From NCBI GenBank assembly GCA_034521425.1, contig JAXHMP010000001.1:2569737-2633736 (forward strand): a stretch of 64,000 nt of DNA. Direction: 5' to 3'. This DNA comes from Bacteroidota bacterium. Lineage in GTDB: Bacteria; Bacteroidota; Bacteroidia; Bacteroidales; JAIOZK01. Shown one piece after another: positions 41,087 through 64,000 of the stretch (positions within the stretch are counted from its first letter, which is position 1; each line of letters starts with the position of its first letter). The notes under the pieces were generated by a model. It was not told where the DNA came from. It searched no databases and saw only the letters and a list, made by a program, of their open reading frames with translations. Made by a program: the position numbers and the translations under genes.

Positions 41087-41149
41087 CCGGAACCCGGAAT
41101 CCGTAACACCAAACACGGAACACCAAACACGGAACCAGAAACCCGGAAT
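41087..41149. repeat. Nine tandem degenerate heptamers (CCGGAAC/ACCAAAC/ACGGAAC type)
   Basis: It parses exactly with period 7: CCGGAAC CCGGAAT CCGTAAC ACCAAAC ACGGAAC ACCAAAC ACGGAAC CAGAAAC CCGGAAT. It lies between convergent genes and abuts the stop of the CysJ-like gene. Confidence 0.8.
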
Positions 41150-48930: not shown

Positions 48931-49002
48931 ATTGGGCAATCATTGAACACTCCTTCTTTCATTTTCCCAGACTCCTTGTCCCTCTTTCTCCCTTTCTCCA
49001 TG

Positions 49003-49124
49003 TCGCCTCCATCGCCCATTCGCCTTTGTCGCCCATTCGCCTTTGTCGCCTTTGTCGCCCATTCGCCTTTGTCGCCCTCGTCGCCCATTCGCCTTTGTCG
49101 CCTTTGTCGCCCATTCGCCCTCAT
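49003..49124. repeat. Tandem 8/9-nt TCGCC-type repeat tract (about 14 units; higher-order 17- and 26-nt periodicity)
   Basis: It reads as TCGCCTCCA TCGCCCAT TCGCCTTTG TCGCCCAT TCGCCTTTG TCGCCTTTG TCGCCCAT TCGCCTTTG TCGCCCTCG TCGCCCAT TCGCCTTTG TCGCCTTTG TCGCCCAT TCGCCCTCA. It lies between the BNR gene stop and the tadA start. Confidence 0.85.
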
Positions 49125-49162
49125 CTTCCCTCAATTCCCTATCTTTACAAAAAATTCAATCC

Positions 49163-49609
49163 ATGCAAAAACCCCTGACACATGAATTCTTCATGGAACA
49201 GGCCCTGAAAGAGGCACAGAAAGCCTTTGAGCAGGACGAGGTTCCCATCGGTGCGGTGATCACCATCAACGACATGGTGATAGCCCGGGCATATAATTAT
49301 ACCGAGCATCTGACTGATGTGACCGCCCATGCCGAGATGCAGGCCTTTACGGCTGCGGCCAACTATCTGGGTTCAAAATACCTACAGGAATGCACGCTTT
49401 ATGTGACCATCGAACCCTGTGTGATGTGCGCTGGCGCGTCCTGTTGGACACAGATCGGGCGCATTGTATACGGGGCCAAAGATGAGAAGAAAGGTTTTTC
49501 ATTGATAAATGATCCTGTCCTGCATCCGAAAACAAAAGTTATCAACGGTGTCATGGAAAAGGAATGCAAAGCTTTGATACAGGAGTTTTTCAGGCGGAAG
49601 AGAACCTAA
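49163..49609 (+). CDS. tadA: tRNA adenosine(34) deaminase
   Basis: The true start is ATG 49163 (MQKPLTHEFFMEQALKEAQKA...EVPIGAVI). Zinc motifs HAEM and PCVMCAGA are present. The upstream part of track ORF 49043 is translated repeat. Confidence 0.9.
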   Translation: MQKPLTHEFFMEQALKEAQKAFEQDEVPIGAVITINDMVIARAYNYTEHLTDVTAHAEMQAFTAAANYLGSKYLQECTLYVTIEPCVMCAGASCWTQIGRIVYGAKDEKKGFSLINDPVLHPKTKVINGVMEKECKALIQEFFRRKRT

Positions 49610-50009
49610 TTGATTTTCGATTGTCGATGGTCGATTTTCGATTTTCGATTTTTTCGGGCCGACATACTGTTTTTTGGAATATGGCAACCAGCTGATTGGA
49701 TTCATCCGGAAGATGTGCCATTAACTTTTTGTCAGCCTTTAATTTTGATTTCGAAATTATCGTATTATTTATATGCGTTTCTCTCAGTTCTTTGAGAACA
49801 AGGCTTACTTTATGGATAAAATCATTCCTGGATTCCGCTCCCTGTGCCTCACCATAATTCAGTGCCGCACTTGTGGATGACCTGATGATCTGGTTGGCCA
49901 TGTGTTTGTCAACAAACTCATTTCCCATTGACTTGCTTAGATTAATCACTTCAACCGAAAAGTCAATTAAGCGGTTTTCAATTTCTTTTCTCATTGGACG
50001 TTTATTCAC
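49590..50009 (-). CDS. Four-helix-bundle protein, copy 1 (TIGR02436 / 23S rRNA-intervening-sequence protein / Avd-like family)
   Basis: The core is MRKEIENRLIDFSVEVINLSKSM...QIIRSSTSAALNYGEAQGAESRNDFIHKVSLVLKELRETH..., which matches the family motif (...aNi.EG.g..s..DF......KE..ET). ATG 49994 is more likely than GTG 50009. The C-terminal tail (...EKIENRKSTIDNRKS...) is translated heptamer repeat and overlaps the tadA 3' end by 20 nt. Confidence 0.8.
   Translation of the reverse strand: MNKRPMRKEIENRLIDFSVEVINLSKSMGNEFVDKHMANQIIRSSTSAALNYGEAQGAESRNDFIHKVSLVLKELRETHINNTIISKSKLKADKKLMAHLPDESNQLVAIFQKTVCRPEKIENRKSTIDNRKSIRFSSA
49612..49653. repeat. Heptamer array, low-coordinate arm of 4HB cassette 1
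   Basis: GATTTTC GATTGTC GATGGTC GATTTTC GATTTTC GATTTTT. Confidence 0.85.
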
Positions 50010-50064
50010 TCAATACCTTTCAAGCGCAAAACGTCCCGTCTTGCATCCCATTTTTTACCAAATC

Positions 50065-50099
50065 GAAAATCGACCATCGAAAATCGGCAATCGAAAATC
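50065..50099. repeat. Heptamer array, high-coordinate arm of 4HB cassette 1 (reverse complement of the 49612-49653 type)
   Basis: GAAAATC GACCATC GAAAATC GGCAATC GAAAATC. It ends one base before the stop codon (50100-50102) of the large gene. Confidence 0.85.
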
Positions 50100-53000
50100 C
50101 TACCTCACCAACACAAAGCTCCCAGTCCTCAACTCCTCTGTCCTTTGCTCCCCGGTCCCGATGTATTCATAAACAATCCGGTAAACATAAGCACCCTGCG
50201 GGCTGTCTTTACCCTTCACTTTTCCGTTCCAGCCTTGGAGAGGATCTTTGCTCTGGTAGATGAGTTGTCCCCAGCGGTTGTAAATTTCCATGCTGAATTT
50301 TGGGATGTAGCTGGAATAAAGCACAACCCTGAATTCGTCATTCATGCCATCGCCATTGGGGGAGAATGCATTGGGGATGTAGAGTTTAAGATAGATGTTT
50401 AAAGCATAAACCGAGTCGATGGAAGTGCAGCCCTGCGGGCTTGTCAGTTCCACCTTGTACCAGCCTTCCTGGGTGATGTGGATGCTTTGGGTAGTGTCGC
50501 CGGTGCTCCATTGGTAATGCTGCTGGCCGGGGCCGGCATCCAGTTGGAGGTGTTCTGAAAAGGGAATGGTGTCCTGGCCGGCGAAGCCTGGCTGTGGCAG
50601 AGGATTCACGATCAGTTCGGTTTCTGCCGTGGCTGTGCAGCCGACAGCATCGGTGGCCGTTACCGTATATAGTCCGGCATCTTCTATGCTGGCTGTCTCC
50701 AGCAGTATCATGCCTCCTTCCTGGTGATCACCCGAGGGGCTTGTCCATTCATAATTGATGTTACCATTGCCCCCGCTTGCATTTGACAAAATGATCACAA
50801 ATTCATCTCCCTCACAGGCCGGTTGTGTAAAAGCAGTAAGCTCCAGATCATTATAAACCCTTACTTGTCCAACTTGAAAAGAATCAGGTAAAAGATTGCC
50901 TTCTGCATCTTTAAACCAACTTGTGCCTTCCTGCCCGTCCCATGATACCTGGCTCAGACCGGTGCTTTCGGCTGTAAAAACCAGGTCGGCCACCACCGAG
51001 GCATCAGGAAGATTTTTCGCTTCCCCGCTCCAATGCAATTGCACTTTGGCCCCGGCAGGGAACAATTGCACATCCAGGTTGGATTCCAACTGGGCATGGG
51101 CATTGGAAAAGCCAGTGCATTCCAGCAGGCTGTCGTTGAAATACAGGGTCATTTGAAATTCGGCTACATCTTCAAAATTATGGACTGTCAGGGGTACGAA
51201 GGCTGAATTGCCCGGGCAGGCTTCATCTTCCCCGGCCACGGCTTCCAGCTTGATGGTGAATATCTCCGGGACTTCTACCGTGATGCTTGTCTGGCAACCA
51301 TATTTGTCCTGTATGTTTAGTTTGTAAAATCCTGCTGCAAGATTGGTGAATGCGCTGTCGTTGAGCTGCCAGCCTGTGAGGCCTTCTATCTGATAGTACA
51401 AAGTATCATAAGTTCCTACTATATCTATGGTGATGCTCCCATTGGCCTGTCCGTCGGTTGCAGGACTGATGAGGGTGTCTTCCACCTGCGGGGCCTGTTC
51501 ATTGATTAGTTCTACCGGGTTGCCGCTCCAGGCCGATTCGCAGCCTGCCGTGTCCTGAACGCGGATGGCATAGCTGCCGGCTGAAAGGTTATTAAAAACT
51601 CCTTCATTGTCAAAGTAGTTGTTTCCATTGTCGATGGAATAGATAAACTGATCGGTATAAGCTGAATGGGCTGATATCTGTATGCTGCCATCCTGCTGAT
51701 CGCAATGCTCATTAATGGCTATAACCTGGGTAATATTGATATCTCCCCCGTCTTCTATGGTAAAAGGGCCGAAGGGCCACTGGCAGGTGTTGGTATCTGT
51801 AACAAAAAGTGTGTAATTGCCCACGGGCAGGTTGTACAGGTTGAGGGTGGTATCCAGGGGGTTGCCGGCATCATCGGTCCAGAGGTAAGAAAAGGGGCCG
51901 TTGCCCAAAAACTGAAGGCCTTCGATAGAGCCGGTGCTGCCCCCGCAGCCCGTGGGTGTGATCACAAGATTGCTGCTGTCGATGGCCGGGCTTTCGCTGT
52001 ATCCGATATAAATGGAATCTGTGCTGCTGCACTGGGCCGTGTTTTTGATCTTTACCCAGTACCATCCGGTATCCGATACGATGATGGAGGTATCATGGCT
52101 TCCGGTATTCCAGGTATGATAGCCGGGACCGCCATTGGCTGTCAGGGTGACTTCTTCCCCGTAGCAAATTTCAAGGTCAGGGCCCAGGTCAGGCCAGGGG
52201 GCGTAAGTTACCTGCACCATGCGGCTGGTATGCTCAAAGCGGCCTGAAGGGTACCATACATCTACCGAAACTTCGTACTCGCCTCCATCTGAAAAAACAT
52301 GGGTAGGGTTGAGTTCATTGGAAATGTTGTTGGCTCCTGAAAGCGTATCCCCGAAATTCCACTCAATGCTGTCGGGCACAGGAAGGAAGTTATGCTGGAA
52401 AGTAAAGGGGGTTCCCTCGCAGTCGCCTTCGAAGAAAAAGCGGAGGTTGTAGTCCATGACGAGGTTGGGTAAACCGTAATGCGACTGTCCAGGTGAAACG
52501 TTAATGGCATCTGCATCATAATTACAATCAATTCCTTTTTTCCATGGATGGTTAATAACCCCAATGTAGTCCCAATTAAATGACCCACTACCAAGCATTT
52601 GAGAACAATATATTTTTCCATCTCTTGCCAATTGCAATGTATGCCCTCTGGGTTGTCCTATTAGTATCTTAGATGAACGAAATGCCGGAGGATCTTCAAT
52701 ATATTTCATTTCATATTGATAAATTTTGCAAGTAGGTTCACCAGTTACAGGATCATGTTCAGTGCTGGTCATATATACAAACCGAGCATCAGGAGAGAAC
52801 TCAATACCGGCAACAGATTCGATCATCAAGTCATGCAAAAATGTTAATTTGCCGCTGACAGCATCAAATTGATATACTTCCGTATCATCAAAACTATATG
52901 AACTTAAAATATACTCTTTATCAGGAGAAATTTTCATATATCCAAGGCACTTATCATCAACAGGGTCCGAAGGACTATATATTGCATTGGTATCAACCCC

Positions 53001-53567
53001 TTGCGATGTCACAAGAAAAGAATTCCAACCATTATTTATAAATTTTCTGGTAATTATCCAATAATCTTTATTATTTTGATGCTTTACGGCAAGCACTCTT
53101 GTACTTGCATCCCAGGCATCATTTAGTAGGATATTCTTTTTAAGAACAATTCCGTGCCCTGCATTATAGTTCATATCGACAAGACAGTAATATAATCCTA
53201 ATCCATCATCGGGATGACGAGTTGTTAAAAAAATATAATACAGATTGTCTGTTTCAGTGATGGGAACAATCACATTTCCTTGGAATGATGAATTACTGAT
53301 TAGGTCATATCCGTTATCCACCAGCACATGGTACGAATTATAAAGTTTTTTTCCATCCGTATACATAATAATATTCCCCAATGAATCAGATATTAGAGAA
53401 GAACATTGACCAAAAGTCTGGCCATCATATAAAACTTGCGGCGGATCATAATTAAAATCCAAACCGGCATAATTACTAAAACACCAAATATTAGCATGGT
53501 TTTCAATTTGTGCATTAAGTTGAAAACCTATTAATATGATTCCTATTAGAAAAACTGTTTTCGTCAT
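50100..53567 (-). CDS. Giant multidomain T9SS surface protein, copy A (type-B gliding-motility C-terminal sorting domain)
   Basis: 1155 aa with signal peptide (...FQLNAQIENH) and a ~370-aa N-terminal propeller-like domain (NIWCFSNYAGLDFNYDPPQVLYDG...). A PKD domain is present (WNFGDTLSGANNISNELNPTHVFSDGGEYEVSV), along with SprB-type repeats (TGCGGSTGSIEGL...YLWTDDAGNPL; NEHCDQQDGSIQI...) and a cohesin-like module (FVPLTVHNFEDVAEFQMTLYFNDSLLE). The C-terminus is IPNAFSPNGDGMNDEF...IYNRWGQLIY...GSFVLVR. Confidence 0.85.
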   Translation of the reverse strand: MTKTVFLIGIILIGFQLNAQIENHANIWCFSNYAGLDFNYDPPQVLYDGQTFGQCSSLISDSLGNIIMYTDGKKLYNSYHVLVDNGYDLISNSSFQGNVIVPITETDNLYYIFLTTRHPDDGLGLYYCLVDMNYNAGHGIVLKKNILLNDAWDASTRVLAVKHQNNKDYWIITRKFINNGWNSFLVTSQGVDTNAIYSPSDPVDDKCLGYMKISPDKEYILSSYSFDDTEVYQFDAVSGKLTFLHDLMIESVAGIEFSPDARFVYMTSTEHDPVTGEPTCKIYQYEMKYIEDPPAFRSSKILIGQPRGHTLQLARDGKIYCSQMLGSGSFNWDYIGVINHPWKKGIDCNYDADAINVSPGQSHYGLPNLVMDYNLRFFFEGDCEGTPFTFQHNFLPVPDSIEWNFGDTLSGANNISNELNPTHVFSDGGEYEVSVDVWYPSGRFEHTSRMVQVTYAPWPDLGPDLEICYGEEVTLTANGGPGYHTWNTGSHDTSIIVSDTGWYWVKIKNTAQCSSTDSIYIGYSESPAIDSSNLVITPTGCGGSTGSIEGLQFLGNGPFSYLWTDDAGNPLDTTLNLYNLPVGNYTLFVTDTNTCQWPFGPFTIEDGGDINITQVIAINEHCDQQDGSIQISAHSAYTDQFIYSIDNGNNYFDNEGVFNNLSAGSYAIRVQDTAGCESAWSGNPVELINEQAPQVEDTLISPATDGQANGSITIDIVGTYDTLYYQIEGLTGWQLNDSAFTNLAAGFYKLNIQDKYGCQTSITVEVPEIFTIKLEAVAGEDEACPGNSAFVPLTVHNFEDVAEFQMTLYFNDSLLECTGFSNAHAQLESNLDVQLFPAGAKVQLHWSGEAKNLPDASVVADLVFTAESTGLSQVSWDGQEGTSWFKDAEGNLLPDSFQVGQVRVYNDLELTAFTQPACEGDEFVIILSNASGGNGNINYEWTSPSGDHQEGGMILLETASIEDAGLYTVTATDAVGCTATAETELIVNPLPQPGFAGQDTIPFSEHLQLDAGPGQQHYQWSTGDTTQSIHITQEGWYKVELTSPQGCTSIDSVYALNIYLKLYIPNAFSPNGDGMNDEFRVVLYSSYIPKFSMEIYNRWGQLIYQSKDPLQGWNGKVKGKDSPQGAYVYRIVYEYIGTGEQRTEELRTGSFVLVR

Positions 53568-53614
53568 AAAAAAAAGTGAAGCAGAAATATATTTTCCTGC
53601 ATCACACTATATTG

Positions 53615-54028
53615 TCAATTTAAAACGACTGTTTGACTGAATGGCCAACTACCGCCAACTAATTCCTGTCCAGTAACGGTTTCACTATCATTACCAGAGC
53701 AACATGTTCCACCATTATCCTTGTAGGTCATATAAACATATATCCTATAGCAATCTTCATCACAATTGGTTCTAATATTCGCGTTTCCTGCATAAGTATA
53801 TGGCTGGGTTGAACTGATGTTGTATACAGCATTGTTATCAACAATTTGCTGTGTAATAAGGTCATATACTACAATTGTGATATCAATCTGTACAGGATCT
53901 GTACAGGAACAATTTGCATCATTCCAGTAAATATTATTTACCCAATAATCAGTTTGGGAAAAAGTTTTGTTTATCCCGGTAAAAACAAAAAGCATCGTAA
54001 TGCTAAAAATAATTGTTAATTTTCTCAT
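53615..54028 (-). CDS. Small secreted 6-Cys protein, copy A (unknown family)
   Basis: The likely start is ATG 54028 (MRKLTIIFSITMLFVFTGINKTFSQTDYW...). It has a signal peptide and a ~110-aa mature part with CSC, CDEDC and CC. It lies 47 nt upstream of large gene A on the same strand, and paralogues sit upstream of copies B and C. Confidence 0.65.
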   Translation of the reverse strand: MRKLTIIFSITMLFVFTGINKTFSQTDYWVNNIYWNDANCSCTDPVQIDITIVVYDLITQQIVDNNAVYNISSTQPYTYAGNANIRTNCDEDCYRIYVYMTYKDNGGTCCSGNDSETVTGQELVGGSWPFSQTVVLN

Positions 54029-54376
54029 CTGTTTAAAAGTTTTTAAAGTTAATAATTTAACCACCTTTTTGCAAGCGGTTTTTTTGAATAAAAGGATTTC
54101 ATGGTGCAGCGCATATTGCAAAGCATAGAGCGGGCAGGGCGGTTTTGCGTTTGCTTATTAATTCACTTGCCGTACCTCCTTTTGCTTGATTGGATATATT
54201 TCGAGCAAAGAAATAAGCTGTTAATGGAAGAAAGGAAAAAATGAAAGAGAAGGAATAATGAAGTAAATATTGGTTTGGTGAGGTGTTTAGAGACTGGATA
54301 CTCTCTCTCTCTAAAAATCCGGTGATTTTGTGTTTCGGCATTGGGTTTGTTTTCTGATTGTTAATTCCTAAAATGT
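54029..54376 (-). other. Conserved non-coding inter-unit spacer (unit A); equivalents at 58812-59063 and 63498-63850
   Basis: It is nearly identical to 63498-63850. The 4HB-proximal ~90 nt is shared by all three units, including a (CT)6 tract (54301-54312) and a G-poor C/A-rich stretch on the minus strand. The ORFs called here change frame between copies. Confidence 0.55.
54059..54085 (-). other. Conserved hairpin in the spacer, unit A
   Basis: 54059-54064 pairs with 54075-54080. On the minus-strand RNA AACCGC pairs with GGUGGUU through a G-U. On the + strand the same position would be an A-C mismatch. A T-run lies on the + strand side. Confidence 0.35.
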
Positions 54377-54790
54377 TCAAAAGGTAACCCAGTTAATTGA
54401 TTTTCGATTGTCGATTTTCGATTGTCGATTTTTTCGGGCCGACATCACTGTTTTATGGAATATGGCAACCAGCTGATTGGATTCATCCAGAAGATGTGCC
54501 ATTAACTCCTTGTCAGCCTTTAACTTTGATTTCGAAATTATCGTATTATTTATATGCGTTTCTCTCAATTCTTTGAGAACAACGCTTGTTTTATGGATAA
54601 AATCATTCCTGGATTCCGCTCCCTGAACTTCACCATAATTAAGTGCCGCACTTGTGGATGACCTGATGATCTGGTTGGCCATGTGTTTGTCAACAAACTC
54701 ATTTCCCATTGACTTGCTTAGATTAATCACTTCAACCGAAAAGTCAATTATGCGGTTTTCAATTTCTTTTCTCATTGGACTTTTATCCAC
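54377..54790 (-). CDS. Four-helix-bundle protein, copy 2
   Basis: 137 aa, ~90% identical by eye to copy 1 (MDKSPMRKEIENRIIDFSVEVINLSKSMGNEFVDKHMANQIIRSSTSAALNYGEVQGAESRNDFIHK...). Confidence 0.8.
   Translation of the reverse strand: MDKSPMRKEIENRIIDFSVEVINLSKSMGNEFVDKHMANQIIRSSTSAALNYGEVQGAESRNDFIHKTSVVLKELRETHINNTIISKSKLKADKELMAHLLDESNQLVAIFHKTVMSARKNRQSKIDNRKSINWVTF
54399..54433. repeat. Heptamer array, low arm of 4HB cassette 2
   Basis: GATTTTC GATTGTC GATTTTC GATTGTC GATTTTT. Confidence 0.85.
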
Positions 54791-54844
54791 TTAATACCTT
54801 TCAAGCGATAAATGTCCCACCTTGCAGCCCATTTTTTTCAAATC

Positions 54845-54879
54845 GAAAATCGAAAATCGACCATCGAAGATCGACAATC
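54845..54879. repeat. Heptamer array, high arm of 4HB cassette 2
   Basis: GAAAATC GAAAATC GACCATC GAAGATC GACAATC. It abuts the stop codon 54880-54882 of large gene B. Confidence 0.85.
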
Positions 54880-57800
54880 TTACCTAATCAACACAATGCT
54901 CCCAGTCCTCACCTCCTCAATCCTTTGCTCCCCGGCACCGATGTATTCGTAAACGATCCGGTAAACATAAGCGCCCTGCGGACTATCTTTGCCTTTTGTT
55001 TTTCCGTTCCAGCCTTGGAGAGGATCTTTGCTTTGGTAGATAAGTTGTCCCCAGCGGTTGTAAATTTCCATACTGAAGCTTGGGATATAGCTGGAATAAA
55101 GTACCACTTTGAACTGCTCGTTCATGCCATCGCCGTTGGGGGAAAAAGCATTGGGGATGTATATTTTCAGATAAATATTCAAAACATAAACCGAGTCGAT
55201 GGAGGTGCAGCCCTGCGGGCTTGTCAGTTCCACTTTGTACCAGCCTTCTTCTGTGATGTGGATGCTTTGGGTGGAGTCGCCGGTGCTCCATTGGTAATGC
55301 TGCTGGCCGGGACCGGCATCCAGGTGGAGGTATTCTGAGAAGGGGATGGTGTCCTTTTCTTCAAAACCTGCCTGTGGCAGGGGGTTCACGATCAGTTCAG
55401 TTTCTGCCGTAGCTGTGCAGCCGACAGCATCCGTGGCCGTTACCGTATAAATTCCGGCATCACTCAGTGTAACTTCCATCAATACCACGTTCTCACCATA
55501 TTCATGATCTCCCGAAGGTTTTGTCCAATCGTAGTTAATCGCTCCGTTTCCTCCGGTGGCAATAGAAGCGATCACTACAAATTCCTGATTTTCACATACG
55601 GTTGGACTGATGGTCGTTAGCTCTATATCATTGTAAACCCTCACCTGTCCTATCTGAAAGGAATCTGGCAAATTATTACCTTCTGCATCTTTAAACCAGC
55701 TTGCGCCTTCCTGCCCGTCCCATTCCACCTGGCTCAGGCCGGTGTTTTCGGCTGTGAAGACCAGGTCGGCTACCGCGGCTGCATCAGGCAGGCTTTGCGC
55801 TCCCCCACTCCAATGCAATTGCACTTTGGCCTCGGCAGGGAACAATTGCACATCCAGGTTGGATTCCAATTGGGCATGGGCATTGGAAAAGCCAGTGCAT
55901 TCCAGCAGGCTGTCGTTGAAGTACAGCGTCATTTGAAATTCGGCCACATCTTCAAAATTGTGAACTGTCAGGGGCACAAAGGCCGAATTGCCCGGACAGG
56001 CTTCATCTTCTCCTGCCACGGCTTCCAGCCTGATGGTGAATATCTCCGGAACTTCTATCGTAAGGGTGGTCTGGCAGCCATATTTGTCCTGTATGTTTAG
56101 CGTGTAAAATCCTGCTGCAAGATTGGTGAATGTGCTGTCGTTGAGCTGCCAGCCTGTGAGGCCTTCTATCTGATAGTACAAAGTATCATAAGTTCCTACT
56201 ATATCCATGGTGATGCTCCCATTGGCCTGTCCGTCGGTTGCAGGACTGATGAGGGTGTCTTCCACCTGCGGGGCCTGTTCATTGACCAGCTCCACCGGGT
56301 TGCCGCTCCAGGCCGACTCGCAGCCTGATGTGTCCTGCACGCGGATGGCATAGCCTCCTGCTGACAAATGTGCAAAAAGTCCTGCATTGTCAAAGTAGTT
56401 GTTTCCATTGTCGATGGAATAGATAAACTGATCGGTATAGGCCGATTGGGCAGAAATTTCTATGCGGCCGTCCTGTTGACCGCAATGCTCGTTGATGGCG
56501 ATCACTTGTGAAATATTGATATCTCCCCCGTCTCCGATGTTAAAAGGGCCCATAAGGCCACTGGCAGGCATTGGTATCGGTAACAAAAAGGGTATAGTTG
56601 CCCACGGGCAGGTTGTACAGGTTGAGGGTGGTATCCAGGGGATTGCCGGCATCATCGGTCCAGAGGTAGGAAAAGGGGCCGTTGCCCGAAAACTGAAGGC
56701 CTTCGATGGAGCCGGTGCTGCCCCCGCAGCCAGTGGGTGTGATCACAAGATTGCTGCTGTCGATGGCCGGGCTTTCGCTGTAGCCGATATATATGGAATC
56801 GGTGCTTGTGCACTGGGCCGTGTTTTTGATCTTCACCCAGTACCAGCCGGTATCAGAAACGATGATGGAAGTATCATGGCTGCCGGTATTCCAGGTGTGG
56901 TAGCCGGGGCCGCCATTGGCCGTCAGGGTGACTTCTTCCCCGTAGCAAATTTCCAGGTCCGGGCCCAGGTCGGGCCAGGGAGCATAGGTAACCTGCAGCA
57001 TGCGGCTGGTGTGCTCGAAGCGCCCTGAGGGGTACCATACATCCACCGAAACCTCGTATTCGCCTCCATCTGAAAAAACATGGGTAGGGTTGAGTTGGTT
57101 GGAAATGTTGTTGGCTCCCGATAGCGTATCCCCAAAGTTCCATTCTATGCTGTCGGGCACCGGAAGGAAATTATGCTGAAAAGTGAAAGGTATTCCTTCG
57201 CAATCGCCTTCGAAGAAGAAGCGGAGGTTGTAGTCCATGACAACGTTGGGTAATCCGTAAAGTGACTGACCTGGTGAAACATCAATGGCATCTGCTATAT
57301 AGTTGCAAGCATTTCCCCTTAGCCAGGGATTACTTATTACACCAAGGTAATCCCAATCATAGTTTTCATAAGTATCTGAACAATAAATCTTGCCATCTCG
57401 TGCCAATTGCAGTACAAATCCCCTGGGTTGCCCAATGATCATTTTTGAGGATCTGAACAAGGAAGGATCTTCTATATATTTCATTTCATATTGGCTAATC
57501 TTGTACTGGTATTCCCCACTAATTGAATCCAGGGTTAATTTTGTCATATAAGCATATTTGGAATCTGGTGAGAACTCAATTCCTCCTATGGTTTCCATTA
57601 ATAGGGTATGCAAAAAAGTTGCCTTTCCTGTTGCAGCATCAAAGCGGTATACTTCGGTATCACCAAACTGATAAGAACTTATTATGTATTTCTTATCATA
57701 TGAAATTTTCATAAAACCAAAATAGTTGCATTGAGCTGGAAGAGTTTGTGCCTCGCTGAGAACTGCATTGGGTTCCAACCCAGCAGGTGTGACTAAAAAA

Positions 57801-58345
57801 GCAGCTATTTCATTGGTAATAAACTTTCGGGTAAGTACCCAATAGTCACGACCATTCTGATGCTTTACAGCTAATACGCGTGTGCTGGCATCCCAGGCAT
57901 CATTAAGAAGTATATTCTTTTCGATTATTTTTCCCTGCCCCGAATTATAGCTCATATCAACTAAGCTATAGTAAAATCCAAGTCCTTCATCAGGATGCCT
58001 TGTCGCCGAAAAAACATAATATAAATCATTATTATCAGGAAATGGTATGATCACGTTGCCCTGCCAAGATGGATTCCAAAGCAGATCACCATTTTCTATG
58101 ATATCATGCTCCGAATTGAAAGCATGCTTACCGTCAGTATACAATATGATATTCCCTTGATTATTTGAAATAAGTCCAGTTCCCTCTTCGAACGTTTTGC
58201 CATCGTACAATACAATGGGAGGATCAACATTAAAATCCAAACCAGCATGATGGCTAAAGTACCATATGTTGGCTCGGTTTTCAATTTGAGACCAAGTAAT
58301 ATTAAAACAGAAAAAAAATGTAAGTATGAAAAAAAATTTATTCAT
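54880..58345 (-). pseudogene. Giant type-B-CTD T9SS surface protein, copy B, split by a 1-nt indel
   Basis: ORFs 56540-58345 (N-terminal 601 aa) and 54880-56655 (C-terminal 591 aa) are collinear with copies A and C. Near 56546-56553 copy B reads GGGCCCATAAGG where copy C reads GGGCCGTAAGG, one extra base, which gives ...ACQWPYGPF-stop instead of ...GPFNIGDGGDIN... Confidence 0.8.
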
Positions 58346-58394
58346 TTATAAAAATAAAAAATGGAGTAACATTCAAAATGCTACTCCTTAATCT

Positions 58395-58811
58395 TTAGTT
58401 TAAAACTATCTCATTAGGAAATGCATACGAACCACCAACTAAGGTCTCACCGGATACATTATCACTACTGTACCCTGAACAACATGTTCCACTTGAATCT
58501 TTTATCCTAACATACACCACGACAGTGTAGCAAGGGTCTCCACAATCGAGCCCAATGTTATCAGTGGTGTTTGTATAGCTATATGGTTCGCTTACATCCA
58601 ACTGCCAACCTGAGTCACTTACCAGAGATTGATCAGAGATCTTAATTATGACAATACGAACATCATAACGAATTGGCTCAGCACAACTACAGTTTGATTC
58701 ATCCCACTCAATCCCTCCAACATAATAACCTGAAGGTGGTGGAGCTGTTTCACTAAATCCCACCAAAACAAAAAGCATCAAAATGCTTACAATAATTCCT
58801 AATTTTTTCAT
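58395..58811 (-). CDS. Small secreted 6-Cys protein, copy B
   Basis: ATG 58811 (MKKLGIIVSILMLFVLVGFSETAPPPSGYYVGGIEWDESNCSCAEP...CGDPCYTVVVYVRIKDSSGTCCSG...LVGGSYAFPNEIVLN). It is the most diverged of the three. Confidence 0.65.
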   Translation of the reverse strand: MKKLGIIVSILMLFVLVGFSETAPPPSGYYVGGIEWDESNCSCAEPIRYDVRIVIIKISDQSLVSDSGWQLDVSEPYSYTNTTDNIGLDCGDPCYTVVVYVRIKDSSGTCCSGYSSDNVSGETLVGGSYAFPNEIVLN

Positions 58812-59063
58812 AACTAATTGGTTTTTCAAAATTAATAAATTAACACATAAATTTCAAGTGTTTCCTTTTGCATGGCAAGTGGCAGGGAAAATTCAAATGC
58901 TGTTTTACTAAGGAGGCGAATACTCCCACTGTGAAAGTAACCAGGAAGAATACTCCAGATAATTTAGGATGCTAAAAGAGCGAATACTCTCTCTCTCTAC
59001 AAATCCGGTGATTTTGTGATTCGGCATTTGGTTTGTTTTCTGATTGTTAATTCCGGAAATGTT

Positions 59064-59484
59064 CAAAAGGTAACCCAGTTAATTGATTGTCGATTGTCGA
59101 TGGCCGATTTTCGATTTTCGATTTTTTCGGGCCGACATCACTGTTTTCTGGAATATGGCAACCAGCTGATTGGATTCATCCAGAAGATGCTCCATTAATT
59201 TTTTATCAGACTGTTAACTTTGATCGGGAAATAATAGTAAGGTTTACATGGGTTTCTTTCAATTCTTTGAGTACAACACTTATTTTATGGGTAAAATCAT
59301 TCCTGGATTCCGCTCCCTGTGCCTCACCATAATTAAGTGCCGCACTTGTGGATGACCTGATGATCTGGTTGGCCATGTGTTTGTCAACAAACTCATTTCC
59401 CATTGACTTGCTTAGATTAATTACTTCAACCGAAAAGCCAATTAAGCGGTTTTCAATTTCTTTTCTCATTGGACGTTTATCCAC
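59064..59484 (-). pseudogene. Four-helix-bundle protein, copy 3, frameshifted
   Basis: The track ORF 59206-59484 stops at ...SRSKLTV. The remainder (KKLMEHLLDESNQLVAIFQKTV...) continues in another frame. There is one extra base at the T6 run 59199-59204; copy 1 has T5. Confidence 0.7.
59086..59127. repeat. Heptamer array, low arm of 4HB cassette 3
   Basis: GATTGTC GATTGTC GATGGCC GATTTTC GATTTTC GATTTTT. Confidence 0.85.
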
Positions 59485-59539
59485 TTAATACCTTTCAAGC
59501 GATAAATGTCCCGTCCTGCATCCCATTTTTTACCAAATC

Positions 59540-59574
59540 GAAAATCGACCATCGAAAATCGACCATCGAAAATC
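59540..59574. repeat. Heptamer array, high arm of 4HB cassette 3
   Basis: GAAAATC GACCATC GAAAATC GACCATC GAAAATC. It abuts the stop codon 59575-59577 of large gene C. Confidence 0.85.
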
Positions 59575-62500
59575 CTACCTCACCAACACAAAGCTCCCAG
59601 TCCTCACCTCCTCAATCCTTTGCTCCCCGGCACCGATATATTCATAAACAACCCGGTAAACATAGGCGCCCATTGGGCTGTCTTTGCCATTTACTTTGCC
59701 GTTCCAGCCTTGCAGCGGATTATCACTCTGGTAGATGAGTTGTCCCCAGCGGTTGTAAATTTCCATACTGAAGCTTGGGATATAACTGGAATAAAGCACC
59801 ACTTTGAACTGCTCGTTCATGCCATCGCCGTTGGGGGAAAAAGCATTGGGGATGTATATTTTCAGATAAATATTCAAAACATAAACCGAGTCGATGGAGG
59901 TGCAGCCCTGCGGGCTTGTCAGTTCTACTTTGTACCAGCCTTCTTCTGTAATGTGGATGCTTTGGGTGGTGTCGCCGGTGCTCCATTGGTACTGCTGCTG
60001 GCCGGGACCGGCATCCAGATGGAGGGATTCTGAAAAGGAGATGGTGTCCTGGCCGGCAAAACCTGCCTGCGGCAGGGGATGCACGATCAGTTCGGTTTCT
60101 GCCGTGGCTGTGCAGCCAACAACATCAGTGGCTGTTACCGTATAAACTCCGGCATCTTCTGTGGTGACTGTCTCCAGCAGGATCATGCCTCCTTCTTCGT
60201 GATCACCCGAGGGAGTTGTCCATGCATAATTTATGTTGCCATTGCCCCCACTTGCATTTGACAAAATGATGACAAATTCATCCCCTTCACAAACCGGCTG
60301 GGCAAAAGCGCTAAGCTCAATATCATTGTAAATCCTCACCTGCCCGATCTGAAAAGAATCCGGCAAATTATTGCCTTCTTCATCTTTAAACCAGCTTGCC
60401 CCTTCCTGACCGTCCCATGATACCTGGCTCAGGCCGGTGTTTTGGGCGGTAAAGACAAGATCGGCTACCACGGCTGCATCAGGCAGGCTTAGCGGATCCC
60501 CACTCCAATACAATTGTACTTTGGCCCCGGCAGGGAACAATTGCACATCCAGGTTGGATTCCAACTGGGCATGGGCATTGGAAAAGCCAGTGCATTCCAG
60601 CAGGCTGTCGTTGAAATACAGGGTCATTTGAAATTCGGCTACATCTTCAAAATTATGGACTGTCAGGGGTACGAAGGCTGAATTGCCCGGGCAGGCTTCA
60701 TCTTCCCCGGCCACGGCTTCCAGCTTGATGGTGAATATCTCCGGGACTTCTACCGTGATGCTTGTCTGGCAACCATATTTGTCCTGTATGTTTAGTTTGT
60801 AAAATCCTGCTGCAAGATTGGTGAATGCGCTGTCGTTGAGCTGCCAGCCTGTGAGGCCTTCTATCTGATAGTACAAAGTATCATAAGTTCCTACTATATC
60901 TATGGTGATGCTCCCATTGGCCTGTCCGTCGGTTGCAGGACTGATGAGGGTGTCTTCCACCTGCGGGGCCTGTTCATTGATTAGTTCTACCGGGTTGCCG
61001 CTCCAGGCCGATTCGCAGCCTGCCGTGTCCTGAACGCGGATGGCATAGCTGCCGGCTGAAAGGTTATTAAAAACTCCTTCATTGTCAAAGTAGTTGTTTC
61101 CATTGTCGATGGAATAGATAAACTGATCGGTATAAGCTGAATGGGCTGATATCTGTATGCTGCCATCCTGCTGATCGCAATGCTCGTTAGTGGTAATTAC
61201 CTGCAAAATGTTGATATCCCCTCCGTCTTCAATGATAAAAGGGCCGTAAGGCCATTGGCAGGCATTAGTATCACTAACAAAAAGGGTATAATTGCCCACA
61301 GGCAGGTTGTAAAGGTTTATTGTTGTATCCAGGGGATTTCCGGCATCATCTGTCCAGAGGTAGGAAAAAGGGTTGTTGCCCGAAAACTGCAAACCTTCTA
61401 TGGAGCCGGTGCTGCCCCCGCAGCCCGTGGGTGTGATCACAAGATTGCTGCTGTCGATGACCGGGCTTTCGCTGTAGCCGATATAAATGGAATCTGTGCT
61501 GCTGCACTGGGCCGTGTTTTTGATCTTTACCCAGTACCATCCGGTATCCGATACGATGATGGATGTATCATGGCTGCCGGTATTCCAGGTGTGATAGCCG
61601 GGGCCGCCATTGGCAACAAGCGTAACTTCTTCCCCGTAGCAAATTTCCAGGTCCGGGCCCAGCTCGGGCCAGGGAGCGTAGGTTACCTGCACCATGCGGC
61701 TGGTATGCTCGAAGCGGCCTGAAGGGTACCAGACATCCACAGAAACCTCGTACTCACCTCCATCTGAAAAAACATGGGTTGGGTTGAGTTCATTGGAAAT
61801 GTTGTTGGCTCCTGAGAGCGTATCCCCGAAGTTCCACTCAATGCTGTCGGGCACGGGCAGGAAATTATGCTGAAAAGTAAAGGGCGTTCCCTCGCAATCG
61901 CCCTCGAAGAAGAAGCGGAGGTTGTAGTCCATGACGAAGTTTACTAGTCCATAATGTGCCTGTCCTGGTGATACATCTATAGCATCTCCTTCATAGTCAC
62001 ACCCAATACCTTTTATCCAGGGTTTGTTTATAACTCCAACATGGTCCCGGTTAAGTAAAGCACTGTCATGCGTTTCAGAGCAATATATTTTCCCATCCCT
62101 AGCCATTTGTAATGAATGTCCTCTTGGTTGTCCAATAAGTACTTTTGAGGAACGAAATGCCGGAGGATCTTCAATATACTTCATTTCATATTGATAAATC
62201 GAATATATTGGTTTGCCTGTTATTGGATCATGATCTGTACTGGTCATATATACGAAACGCGAATCTGGAGAATACTCTATACCTGAAATAGACTCTATTA
62301 ATAAAGTATGCATTAAAGTTGCCTGACCACTTTCAGAATCAAATTGATATACTTCTGTATCATCATAGTTGTATGAACAAAGTATATATTTTTTATTAGG
62401 AGAGATCTTGATGAATCCAAAGCACTGATCGTCAACCGGGTATGAAAAACTATAAATTGATTCTGTATCGAGACCATCTGAAGTAACTAAAAATGAGGCC

Positions 62501-63042
62501 AGACCATTTGTTATCATTTTCCTTGTTATTACCCAATAGTCTTTGTTATTTTCATGTTTTACGGCAAGGACTCTTGTACTTGCATCCCAAGCATCATCAA
62601 GAAGAATATTCTTCTCTATAACGATTCCATGTCCTGCATTGTAATTCATATCCACAAGACAGTAATACAATCCTAAACCATCATCAGGATGTTGTTTAGT
62701 TAAAAATATATAATAAAGATTATTAGATTCTGGAAAAGGAACAATGACACTGGTTTGAAAGCCTGCATTTCCAATAAGATCGTATCCATTTTCAACCAGC
62801 ATATGATCCGAATTAAATACCTTTCTCCCATCAGAATACATTACAATATTACCTGATGAGTCTGATATTATTGATGCACACTCTTCAGTAGTTTTACCAT
62901 CATATAATACTTGTGGCGGATCATAATTAAAATCCAATCCGGCAGAATCACAGAAATACCAAATATTGGCGTGGTTTTCAATCTGTGCAAATAATTGAAA
63001 ACATGTTAGTAAGAATACAGTATGTAATAATATTTTTTTCAT
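59575..63042 (-). CDS. Giant multidomain T9SS surface protein, copy C (type-B CTD)
   Basis: 1155 aa with the same architecture as copy A. The central part is identical to A over long stretches, the CTD is closer to copy B, and the N-terminal ~370 aa is diverged. Confidence 0.85.
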   Translation of the reverse strand: MKKILLHTVFLLTCFQLFAQIENHANIWYFCDSAGLDFNYDPPQVLYDGKTTEECASIISDSSGNIVMYSDGRKVFNSDHMLVENGYDLIGNAGFQTSVIVPFPESNNLYYIFLTKQHPDDGLGLYYCLVDMNYNAGHGIVIEKNILLDDAWDASTRVLAVKHENNKDYWVITRKMITNGLASFLVTSDGLDTESIYSFSYPVDDQCFGFIKISPNKKYILCSYNYDDTEVYQFDSESGQATLMHTLLIESISGIEYSPDSRFVYMTSTDHDPITGKPIYSIYQYEMKYIEDPPAFRSSKVLIGQPRGHSLQMARDGKIYCSETHDSALLNRDHVGVINKPWIKGIGCDYEGDAIDVSPGQAHYGLVNFVMDYNLRFFFEGDCEGTPFTFQHNFLPVPDSIEWNFGDTLSGANNISNELNPTHVFSDGGEYEVSVDVWYPSGRFEHTSRMVQVTYAPWPELGPDLEICYGEEVTLVANGGPGYHTWNTGSHDTSIIVSDTGWYWVKIKNTAQCSSTDSIYIGYSESPVIDSSNLVITPTGCGGSTGSIEGLQFSGNNPFSYLWTDDAGNPLDTTINLYNLPVGNYTLFVSDTNACQWPYGPFIIEDGGDINILQVITTNEHCDQQDGSIQISAHSAYTDQFIYSIDNGNNYFDNEGVFNNLSAGSYAIRVQDTAGCESAWSGNPVELINEQAPQVEDTLISPATDGQANGSITIDIVGTYDTLYYQIEGLTGWQLNDSAFTNLAAGFYKLNIQDKYGCQTSITVEVPEIFTIKLEAVAGEDEACPGNSAFVPLTVHNFEDVAEFQMTLYFNDSLLECTGFSNAHAQLESNLDVQLFPAGAKVQLYWSGDPLSLPDAAVVADLVFTAQNTGLSQVSWDGQEGASWFKDEEGNNLPDSFQIGQVRIYNDIELSAFAQPVCEGDEFVIILSNASGGNGNINYAWTTPSGDHEEGGMILLETVTTEDAGVYTVTATDVVGCTATAETELIVHPLPQAGFAGQDTISFSESLHLDAGPGQQQYQWSTGDTTQSIHITEEGWYKVELTSPQGCTSIDSVYVLNIYLKIYIPNAFSPNGDGMNEQFKVVLYSSYIPSFSMEIYNRWGQLIYQSDNPLQGWNGKVNGKDSPMGAYVYRVVYEYIGAGEQRIEEVRTGSFVLVR

Positions 63043-63089
63043 AAAAAAAGTGATGCAGAAAACTTACTTTTCTGCATCACATCTTATCG

Positions 63090-63497
63090 CTAATTTAAAA
63101 CTACAGTACCAAAACTCCAATTTCCTCCTACCAATTCCTGACCAGTTGCATTTTTACTATCATTTCCTGAGCAACATTCACCTCCACTATCTTTTAGCCT
63201 AACATATACTACGACAGTATAACAATCATCATCACAGTCCGTCTTTATATCGGCATTACCTTCGTAATCATATCCCTGGGAAACATCAATAATCCATTGA
63301 GAATCATCTTCTACAGTTTGAGTCAGTATGTCGATCACAACAATTCTTACATCGGCCTGAATGGGTTCCGAACAACTACAATTTGAGTCATCCCAATAAA
63401 TATTGTTCACATAATAATCTGTTTGGGAAAAAACTTTGTTTATCCCGGCAAAAACAAAAAGCATCGCAATGCTTACAATAATTCCTAATTTTTTCAT
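63090..63497 (-). CDS. Small secreted 6-Cys protein, copy C
   Basis: 135 aa: MKKLGIIVSIAMLFVFAGINKVFSQTDYYVNNIYWDDSNCSCSEP...CDDDCYTVVVYVRLKDSGGECCSGNDS...LVGGNWSFGTVVLN. Confidence 0.65.
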   Translation of the reverse strand: MKKLGIIVSIAMLFVFAGINKVFSQTDYYVNNIYWDDSNCSCSEPIQADVRIVVIDILTQTVEDDSQWIIDVSQGYDYEGNADIKTDCDDDCYTVVVYVRLKDSGGECCSGNDSKNATGQELVGGNWSFGTVVLN

Positions 63498-63525
63498 TTA
63501 TAAAAAGTTTTAAAGTTAATAATTT

Positions 63526-63552
63526 AACCGCCATTTGGCAAGCGGTTTTTTT
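63526..63552 (-). other. Conserved hairpin in the spacer, unit C
   Basis: AACCGC (63526-31) pairs with GCGGTT (63542-47), a perfect 6 bp with a 10-nt loop. A T-run follows on the + strand and an A-run precedes on the minus strand. Confidence 0.35.
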
Positions 63553-63850
63553 GAATAAAAGGATTTCATGGTGCAGCGCATATTGCAAAGCATAGAGCGG
63601 GCAGGGCTTTTTTGCGTTTGCTTATTAATTCACTTGCCGTACCTCCTTTCCTGAAATGCTTGATTGGATATATTTCGAGCAAAGAAATAAGCTGTTAATG
63701 GAAGAAAGGAAAAAATGAAAGAGAAGGAATAATGAAGTAAATATTGGTTTGGTGAGGTGTTTAGAGTCTGGATACTCTCTCTCTCTACAAATCCGGTGAT
63801 TTTGTGTTTCGGCATTGGGTTTGTTTTCTGATTGTTAATTCCGGAAATGT

Positions 63851-64000
63851 TCAAAAGGTAACCCAGTTAATTGATTTTCGATTGTCGATGGCCGATTTTC
63901 GATTTTCGAATTTTCCGGGCCGACATCACTGTTTTTTGGAATATGGCAACCAGCTGATTAGATTCATCCGGAAGATGTGCCATTAACTTTTTGTCAGCCT
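63851..64000 (-). CDS. Four-helix-bundle protein, copy 4 (3' part only; continues beyond the window)
   Basis: Stop codon at 63851-63853. The sequence 63868-64000 matches 49607-49740 almost base for base (…KADKKLMAHLPDESNQLVAIFQKTV... tail). Confidence 0.7.
63873..63914. repeat. Heptamer array, low arm of 4HB cassette 4
   Basis: GATTTTC GATTGTC GATGGCC GATTTTC GATTTTC GAATTTT. Confidence 0.8.

Follow-up and report, generated by a model that had tools for sequence, protein, structure and literature searches.

Introduction

The closest described relative of the element reported here is the intervening sequence (IVS) of 23S rRNA. In Coxiella, this IVS has a 28-bp terminal stem with 2-3 GACAGAT heptamers, the number of which varies by strain, and RNase III cleaves the stem at the first heptamer, as found in vitro with ends mapped by rapid amplification of cDNA ends (PMC4990558). 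IVSs bearing an open reading frame (ORF) are also named in Leptospira, Brucella and Xanthomonas (PMC4990558). Here, we analyse a 64,000-nt stretch of a Bacteroidota bacterium genome (assembly GCA_034521425.1, contig JAXHMP010000001.1, positions 2,569,737 to 2,633,736 of the forward strand; hereafter the window), in which GATTKTC arrays and their reverse complements bracket three complete genes and one cut-off gene of the TIGR02436/PF05635 family. We are highly confident that these cassettes belong to a widespread type, namely a stand-alone four-helix-bundle (4HB) gene of the S23p/IVS-protein/Avd-like kind, lying within the loop of a long hairpin with inverted heptamer arrays for arms.

The short tandemly repeated repetitive (STRR) sequences of heterocystous cyanobacteria are the same kind of element as the heptanucleotide simple sequence repeats (SSRs) of other bacteria. 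Heptameric intergenic SSRs, such as GGGAATC in Xanthomonas and GGGGAYT in Nostoc, usually comprise ~4 or more copies, lie close to gene ends and are variable in length, while inverted GGGAATC pairs number 70-75 per Xanthomonas genome (PMC4692102). That paper treats heptamer repeats as G-quadruplex formers and makes no mention of S23p/4HB genes, the term 'S23' occurring nowhere in it. A third system is the diversity-generating retroelement (DGR), whose accessory protein Avd is a basic pentameric barrel acting on structured RNA with a long-range duplex (bioRxiv 10.1101/2023.10.23.563531). In the literature searched we found no statement of a general association between 4HB genes and such arms, although most subscription journals lay outside the search and an earlier description is possible.

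The window cassettes share with the 23S IVS an S23p/PF05635 ORF inside a long terminal inverted-repeat stem, the presence of heptamers and an element size of ~430-490 nt (PMC4990558). The initial annotation of this stretch, made from the sequence alone, was right to call them IVS-like, since an ORF in a long heptamer stem is also the architecture of the Coxiella ORF-bearing IVS. Yet, they differ in several respects. They lie not in a 23S rRNA helix (helix 45 in Coxiella) but in protein-coding surroundings, between a cargo gene of the type IX secretion system (T9SS) and tadA or the next unit; their arms are longer (5-6 heptamers); and their conserved leader motif suggests that expression signals of their own are possible. 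Moreover, excision by RNase III is demonstrated for the IVS, whereas we infer it for the window cassette.

With heptanucleotide SSRs the arms have in common the tandem 7-nt units, at least 3-4 of them near gene ends, a length that varies between relatives and the frequent occurrence in convergent pairs, and GGGAATC itself flanks a 4HB pseudogene in Xanthomonas. In contrast, the window heptamer is A+T-rich and cannot form a G-quadruplex, and the defining feature of the cassette is the gene in the loop. Avd has a homologous fold. However, there is no reverse transcriptase (RT) or template repeat/variable repeat (TR/VR) next to the window cassettes, and the DGR duplex brackets the TR, not the avd gene.

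Arrangement of the cassettes

The inverted heptamer arms that had been described on the flanks of the 4HB genes were recovered by both Tandem Repeats Finder (TRF) and a pattern scan. The low-coordinate arms are period-7 arrays with the consensus GATTTTC/GATTGTC and a GATGGTC variant, and the high-coordinate arms are reverse-complement arrays; by TRF, each arm contains 4.6-6 heptamers. A degenerate 2.5-unit pattern, GATTKTCGATKKYCGAT, allowing at most 2 mismatches, has 27 matches in the 64-kb window, all confined to the seven arm sites. In shuffled versions of the window 0.30 matches are expected, and 27 were reached in 0 of 100 shuffles. The features of the cassettes are as follows.

49590-49994, minus strand, 4HB gene of cassette A (134 aa, ATG at 49994; overlaps the end of tadA by 20 nt)
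49612-49652, minus strand, 3' arm of cassette A (low arm, 5.9 copies; in gene sense GAAAAUC/GACAAUC/GACCAUC)
50010-50038, minus strand, bipartite leader motif of cassette A, GGGACGTTTT-N-GGTATTGA (common to 17 other loci)
50060-50099, minus strand, 5' arm of cassette A (high arm; in gene sense 5.5 heptamers GAUUUUC/GAUUGCC/GAUGGUC)
54377-54775, minus strand, 4HB gene of cassette B (132 aa, identical to P0001)
54399-54432, minus strand, 3' arm of cassette B (low arm; ~5 heptamers, one fewer than in A, C and D)
54791-54819, minus strand, leader motif of cassette B
54840-54879, minus strand, 5' arm of cassette B (high arm)
59091-59469, minus strand, 4HB pseudogene of cassette C (two in-frame stops after codon 87)
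59085-59123, minus strand, 3' arm of cassette C (low arm)
~59486-59513, minus strand, leader motif of cassette C
59535-59574, minus strand, 5' arm of cassette C (high arm)
63873-63915, minus strand, 3' arm of cassette D (low arm), the gene of which runs off the window end (63879-64000 onward)

The 5' arm of cassette A begins 1 nt past the stop codon of the upstream cargo gene, and its 3' arm begins 2 nt past the stop codon of tadA on the plus strand.

Between the 5' arm and the ATG, a leader motif of the form GUG[U/G]GACAUUUUU-N8-GGUAUUAAUA is found in 18 loci, comprising the three window copies and 15 others. RNAalifold found no consensus pairs among the 18 aligned leaders, and the reading of this motif as an RNA structure was set aside. 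No sigma-70-type promoter was called at the leader either, Bacteroidota promoters being outside the scope of the predictor. The motif may be a promoter or a protein-binding site.

The four-helix-bundle genes

The enclosed ORFs match TIGR02436 at E-values of 2e-17 and 3e-17 (62.9 and 63.6 bits, cut-off 24) and PF05635 at 42.7 and 40.2 bits (cut-off 33.8). Their start was assigned to the ATG of MRKEIENR (49994, 54775 and 59469) from the starts of homologues. An AlphaFold2 model of the cassette B protein, built on 25 homologues, is a four-helix bundle with a mean confidence (pLDDT) of 92.5, and the predicted topology is the up-down bundle typical of the S23p family. In a Foldseek search the best matches of the model were 2RLD (BT_0352) and 2GSC (Xcc0516), at template-modelling (TM) scores of 0.67-0.86; a profile search against PDB sequences also retrieved 2RLD, at E 3e-16. 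Foldseek further matched the model to Avd (4DWL/8UB7, TM 0.67-0.79), at a sequence identity of 6-7%. Hence, the profile scores and the predicted structure agree with the earlier assignment of these genes to the S23p/IVS-protein family, with a fold shared with Avd. A DGR as such was ruled out, given that the units contain no RT and no TR/VR pair, the RT scan being confined to the ORFs of the units.

In cassette A, the final ~20 codons of the gene run through the 3' arm, and the 20-nt overlap with the convergent tadA is as first described. The initial annotation had regarded translation of the low arm as a feature of the module. This is real in units A and B, but it is not conserved, as many homologues stop before the arm, and the last ~12 residues, those encoded by the arm, are of low confidence in the model. 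This suggests a simple rule for annotation, by which a low-complexity C-terminal tail on a gene called as 'four helix bundle protein' is translation that has run on into the 3' arm.

Folding of the cassettes

When the minus-strand RNA of the three complete cassettes was folded with RNAfold, the arms paired as the closing stem in both the minimum-free-energy and the centroid structure, looping out the gene as had been proposed. The terminal stem is about 27-33 bp long, and in all three cassettes the inverted repeats at the ends make up a long stem enclosing the whole element, as they do in an IVS. Cassette A folds at -140.6 kcal/mol (z -3.6) with 12+21 bp and one heptamer (7 nt) bulged, cassette B at -145.2 kcal/mol (z -5.9) with ~27 bp and single mismatches, and cassette C at -144.7 kcal/mol (z -4.2). 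For cassette B, pairing of 32 of 35 positions had been claimed; its arms do pair, but over ~27 bp, somewhat less than that. The arm-arm duplexes of the window reach -39 to -50 kcal/mol, compared to about -20 kcal/mol for shuffled arms.

Distribution across species

The four window cassettes are paralogous copies in tandem units, and therefore constitute one evolutionary observation, not four. A gene-first sample of 79 loci, one genome per species, was collected by scanning with a 25-protein alignment. The loci span Bacteroidales, Flavobacteriales, Cytophagales, Saprospiraceae, Ignavibacteria, Balneolaceae, Neomarinimicrobiota, Calditrichota, Pirellulales, Desulfobacterales and others. At most of them, as judged by eye, an array precedes the ATG by 40-110 nt, and its reverse complement is found at the stop codon or just past it. 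The heptamer itself varies by locus (TTCCATG, GCTATTT, TGTAAAC, CACATAA, GACGAGT, CTTCTAT, GATATCC, GATTAAC and more).

Several tests support this impression. Strict tandem arrays in 444 kb are dominated by period 7 (n=112), followed by period 8 (n=16), with at most 3 for each of the other periods from 4 to 12, and the positions of the period-7 arrays peak at -150 to -50 and +350 to +450 from the ATG. When the upstream flank was compared with the reverse-complemented downstream flank, the best ungapped match had a median of 16, whereas 1450 controls with matching geometry gave 8, and 63% of the loci exceeded the 99th percentile of the controls. By the strict SSR criterion, a period-7 array adjoins at least one side of 52 of 73 genes and both sides of 23 of 73, compared to 5.4% and 0.24% of displaced controls; two-sided arrays thus show a ~130-fold enrichment at 4HB genes. 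Orientation is skewed too: the array nearest to the gene on one side is the inverse of its counterpart in 19 loci and runs the same way in 4 (p=0.003). Similarity across the whole flanks did not differ between direct and inverted comparison, since the upstream region recurs in full in tandem cassettes; for that reason the nearest-array test was used instead. Across loci, the arm duplexes are far more stable than those of shuffled arms (p=3e-13).

The arms have a median length of ~41 nt on each side (~6 units, usually 4-8), and there is a weak correlation between the length of one arm and that of the other (rho 0.37, p=0.09). The sharing of 7-mers between arms follows protein identity (Spearman 0.34, Mantel p about 0.001), and therefore gene and arms travel together. 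From lineage to lineage the sequence of the heptamer is free to change, whereas its period of 7 and the inverted layout persist.

Individual relatives illustrate the range. A pseudogene of the classical S23p type (ANYRAA...EEEADES) in a relative of Algoriphagus has GATTTAC/GATTTTC arms, and a 4HB pseudogene between accB and accC of Xanthomonas arboricola is flanked by GGGAATC arrays and their complement. Two metagenome loci with 4HB genes have GTAGAGC and GTTGGCG (x11) arms, respectively, and a copy on a Nostoc plasmid has the perfect arms (TCAAAAT)4 and (ATTTTGA)4. The initial annotation had set beforehand, as a test that could refute it, whether other copies lack inverted period-7 flanks. 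Relatives in other species and phyla mostly possess them, and the attempted refutation failed. The gene-in-arms arrangement is a property of the protein family, not of this genome.

Two side observations concern the surveyed cassettes. On two plasmids, a 4HB cassette with GTAAAAA arrays lies between cas2 and cas1, on the opposite strand (L212, Anabaena cylindrica pANACY.01, 401-748; L214, Nostoc sp. TCL26-01 plasmid, 401-757). Furthermore, among the 43 gene-first loci whose arms align, the 5' arm is the G+T-rich one in 34 of 42 cassettes (p=7e-5). Since an inverted repeat reads the same on either strand, the polarity is a property of the hairpin as such.

By analogy with Avd, a pentameric 4HB protein might bind its own RNA or DNA, either at the heptamers, each subunit taking roughly one repeat, or at the arm duplex, for autoregulation or assembly of a ribonucleoprotein (RNP). 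In line with this idea, the 2RLD structure contains five chains, Xcc0516 (2GSC) forms a homopentamer (PMC4990558), and Avd is pentameric, the DGR RNP containing Avd-binding stem-loops and a long-range duplex around the TR (bioRxiv 10.1101/2023.10.23.563531). The median of ~6 units per arm and the covariation of arm sequence with the protein would also fit, and a fixed period with a free sequence suggests a constraint on spacing. Yet, the heptamers are wholly different between proteins that are 50-60% identical, even in one genome (L012/L061; L018/L031/L056), most arrays have no 4HB gene nearby (see below), and the S23p protein of Coxiella is apparently not made (PMC4990558). Binding of the arrays by the protein is therefore, in our view, decidedly improbable.

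Arrays without a gene

For an array-first sample, metagenome contigs were scanned for (GATTKTC)3GAT, yielding 80 loci. A 4HB gene lies within 250 nt of only 2 of the 43 arrays with enough flank; this search used hidden Markov models from two subfamilies, so that a few genes may be missed. The census ruled out that GATTKTC arrays are diagnostic of a 4HB gene. An inverted partner within 800 nt accompanies 16 of 80 arrays, compared to 0 of 156 controls, and 14 of these 16 are gene-less hairpins with loops of 12-63 nt, which are the 'empty sites' that had been predicted. In short, arms can be expected from the gene, but not the gene from arms. Solo arrays show no bias in orientation relative to the neighbouring gene end (20 vs 18). 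As a side observation, of 16 gene-less hairpins (among L092-L171), 15 start with the T-rich arm.

Two heptamer arrays of the window, at 1635-1706 and 41087-41148, are likewise solo, with no 4HB gene. The former is (AATAGCC)x10, directly after a G+C hairpin, and the latter mixes CCGGAAC and ACACGGA units, which take up the gap between a pair of convergent genes. CCGGAAC occurs as a solo array in two other Bacteroidales genomes as well (L002, 2601-2643; L055, 1822-1862).

An alternative explanation might be that the arrays are neutral SSRs. Heptamers are over-represented in bacterial intergenic DNA, and the arrays could be roleless products of slippage, their complementarity stemming from inverted duplication. 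The solo arrays, in the window and among the loci (59 of 194), and the rarity of 4HB genes at arrays agree with this explanation, as do the weak correlation of arm lengths and the copy number in orthologues (3.5 vs 5.5 units). It is difficult to reconcile, however, with the two-sided enrichment at 4HB genes, with the preference for the inverted orientation, with complementarity that persists despite complete turnover of the heptamer between lineages, and with the retention of arms in all window paralogues through a unit divergence of 14-21%. We therefore regard neutral SSRs as quite unlikely.

Genomic context of the window

The cassettes form the 3' ends of three 4.7-kb tandem units (49612-63872), each consisting of a small ORF, a cargo gene and a cassette. 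The small ORFs have no Pfam or NCBIfam matches. The neighbouring genes are as the initial annotation had claimed, namely tadA and 1155-aa T9SS type B cargo proteins.

49043-49609, plus strand, tadA, convergent with cassette A
50100-53567, minus strand, cargo gene of unit A, directly upstream of cassette A (1155 aa; PKD and CHU_C/T9SS type B sorting domains)
54880-58345, minus strand, cargo paralogue of unit B (frameshifted; split into two overlapping ORFs of 591 and 601 aa)
59575-63042, minus strand, cargo paralogue

As old paralogues, the units are 79-86% identical to one another. With 89-96% identity the cassette is among their best-conserved stretches, and the N-terminal halves of the cargo proteins share only 62-77%. 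The units are mosaic, and one tract of 500 bp (51110-51609) shows 100% identity between A and C, which indicates gene conversion. Homology between units starts at the outer end of the low arm (TAATTGATTTTCG), so that on alignment the low arm is the unit boundary.

In two related genomes (L080 and L081) a cassette adjoins tadA too, with 4HB proteins that are 87% identical, and the tadA-adjacent cassette is therefore considered ancestral. The further window copies arose by tandem amplification of the 4.7-kb unit. In L080 and L081 a YgaP-like gene stands upstream of the cassette in place of the T9SS cargo gene. The described position behind a T9SS cargo gene is thus true of the window but not conserved, and because the orthologous cassettes follow a YgaP-like gene and an intrinsic terminator, the link with T9SS is incidental. 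The 5' arm, whose heptamers belong to one family in all three genomes, has 3.5 units in L081, 5.5 in L080 and 5.5 in the window; to judge from these sequences, arm copy number drifts between orthologues, as it does between Coxiella strains. Both relatives also contain a second remnant, comprising the last ~20 codons of the 4HB gene and a 3' arm, which lies ~330 nt downstream of the intact cassette and abuts tadA (L080, 6690-6790; L081, 6680-6765).

In a scan of 49000-55200, neither a terminator nor a sigma-70-type promoter was called in the interval from the cargo gene to the 5' arm. The scan yielded 5 terminator sites, against 6.0 expected, and none at any cassette boundary, bar a weak self-pairing inside arm B. 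An intrinsic (Rho-independent) terminator was ruled out on this basis. One could still suppose that the hairpin itself acts as a transcription terminator or insulator between convergent or consecutive genes, without RNase III. The arms indeed take up the interval that separates the cargo stop codon from that of tadA, and canonical terminators are rare around the cassettes. But a stem closing a 430-nt loop is no intrinsic terminator, and there is no short G+C-rich hairpin with a U-tract, the weak self-pairings inside arm B being all that was called. Such a role is very improbable.

No rRNA or other genuine Rfam match was found in 48.5-60 kb (E<=1), the sole match being a spurious long non-coding RNA. 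The Pfam and NCBIfam matches of the unit ORFs include no transposase, integrase or RT in or beside the cassettes, and inspection by eye only revealed no target-site duplication or direct repeat outside the arm ends of the window.

A few other repeats occur nearby. A period-9/26 repeat, TCGCCTTTG (~10 copies, score 186), occupies 49020-49119, upstream of tadA or in its annotated 5' end, and L080 has a comparable TCGCC-rich stretch ahead of its tadA. Between the 3' arm of a cassette and the next small ORF, a 17-nt repeat, TAATGAAAGAAAGGAAA, is present in 2.4 copies at 54222-54262 and 63696-63736, each time followed by a short (CT)n run.

Processing of the stem or exchange of DNA

How might the cassettes work? 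By analogy with the IVS, the arms would form a ~30-bp double-stranded RNA (dsRNA) stem on read-through transcripts that is cut by RNase III, a proposal that we consider the most likely one, with the case for it evenly balanced. In this mechanism, transcription would read from the upstream gene into the cassette, because no terminator stands between the cargo stop codon and the arm. The two arms would then pair into ~30-35 bp of dsRNA, long enough for RNase III, and the cut would separate the cassette RNA from the host transcript, as it separates the IVS from pre-23S rRNA. In consequence, the upstream mRNA would obtain its 3' end, and the 4HB message would be released or inactivated. Tandem heptamers would allow pairing to tolerate register shifts, and their copy number would change by slippage; fast turnover of the arms could be understood because pairing survives such shifts and slippage alters copy number. 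We infer the presence of both arms on one transcript, the cutting by RNase III and the consequences of the cut. The upstream neighbour is co-directional in 49 of 64 loci, and a terminator-like hairpin precedes the 5' arm in only 4 of 43; therefore, read-through is plausible in most loci, including the window.

Several observations weigh against RNase III processing. The window stems are imperfect, because the heptamer variants are ordered differently in the two arms. In L080 and L081, an intrinsic terminator lies 10-20 nt ahead of the 5' arm. If the leader motif were the gene's own promoter, the main transcript could lack the 5' arm altogether. Arrays do not need the gene, as the 2 of 43 in the census indicate. 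Furthermore, complementarity is strand-symmetric, the more stable duplex being the sense one at 35 loci and the antisense one at 36 (p=0.64). Mismatches between arms are of the G·U type in 133 cases and of the A·C type in 101 (p=0.04), an excess that transcription-coupled mutation bias could explain. Strand-symmetric complementarity and a marginal G·U excess are therefore no proof of selection at the RNA level over the DNA level.

The dynamics of individual loci turn attention to DNA. The lepA-folD spacer of Cyclobacteriaceae occurs in four different states. A cassette is present in one state (L048, L039, L053 and L084; Algoriphagus limi, A. marincola and CP030041), and a different 4HB subfamily with different arms in another (L082; JBHRVW01). 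Array remnants alone (L083 and L085) make up the other two, a degenerate heptamer remnant in SGXG01 and a solo array after the lepA stop in Belliella. This spacer may be a hot spot for cassettes. The loci L002, L212 and L214 are laid out as arm, gene, same-sense arm, loop and inverse arm, and tandem runs of 3-4 identical cassettes occur in L011 (3001-4457, period 553 nt) and L055 (3001-4415, period 529 nt). Together, the tandem cassettes and the layouts that resemble insertion into an array point to DNA-level dynamics centred on the arrays. In L011 and L055, short-loop hairpins are also formed by the 3' arm of a cassette together with the 5' arm of the one that follows.

These dynamics might mean that the cassette is a DNA-level element. 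The arms would then serve a mobile or exchangeable cassette as its terminal inverted repeats (TIRs) or as substrates for recombination, the 4HB gene would enter or swap via pre-existing array hairpins, and the RNA stem would be a by-product. Apart from the tandem runs and insertion-like layouts, the presence/absence polymorphism at lepA-folD speaks for it, as do the commonness of gene-less hairpins (14 of 80), the duplicated 3' remnants with an arm in L080 and L081, and the coincidence of the 4.7-kb unit boundary with the outer end of the low arm. Strand-symmetric complementarity and the co-inheritance of arms and gene across taxa are compatible as well, and Ralph and McClelland, as cited in PMC4990558, proposed that IVSs are mobile. 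Conversely, the cassettes lack a transposase, integrase or RT of their own or beside them, no target-site duplication was evident by eye at the window arm ends, the tadA-adjacent cassette is stably orthologous in three genomes, and tandem heptamers are unlike any known transposon end. Taking these points together, we consider a DNA-level element possible but rather doubtful.

Somewhat comparable elements are MITEs (miniature inverted-repeat transposable elements) and the repetitive extragenic palindromic (REP) sequences with their bacterial interspersed mosaic elements (BIMEs). Like the cassettes, these are short and intergenic, have inverted-repeat ends, and include gene-less hairpin derivatives that outnumber the gene-bearing copies. 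However, the arms of the cassettes are lineage-specific tandem heptamers rather than a conserved TIR or palindrome, no transposase or REP-associated tyrosine transposase (RAYT) partner was identified for them, and no target-site duplication was seen at the cassettes. Possibly, the 4HB proteins are the trans-acting component of a widespread class of hairpin elements, in which gene-bearing cassettes are autonomous and gene-less hairpins and solo arrays are derivatives, as in the pairs MITE and insertion sequence or REP and RAYT. ORF-bearing 23S IVSs would then be copies that landed in the hairpin loops of rRNA. We rate this proposal as improbable.

Implications

If the 4HB proteins were such a trans-acting component, two things would be accounted for, why bacterial intergenic DNA is so rich in heptanucleotide repeats and what the IVS protein does. 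The design of the cassette connects these two puzzles, the role of the S23p family and the over-representation of intergenic heptanucleotide repeats. The published 'G-quadruplex' repeat GGGAATC of Xanthomonas flanks a 4HB gene, and the stem region of the Coxiella IVS has the same kind of repeat. Bacteroidota and cyanobacteria have very many members of the S23p family, which is homologous to the Avd factor of DGRs. Should RNase III cut the stem, as in the processing mechanism considered above, the cassettes would represent a general way to embed a gene in a host transcript and then excise it, of which the rRNA IVS would be a special case.

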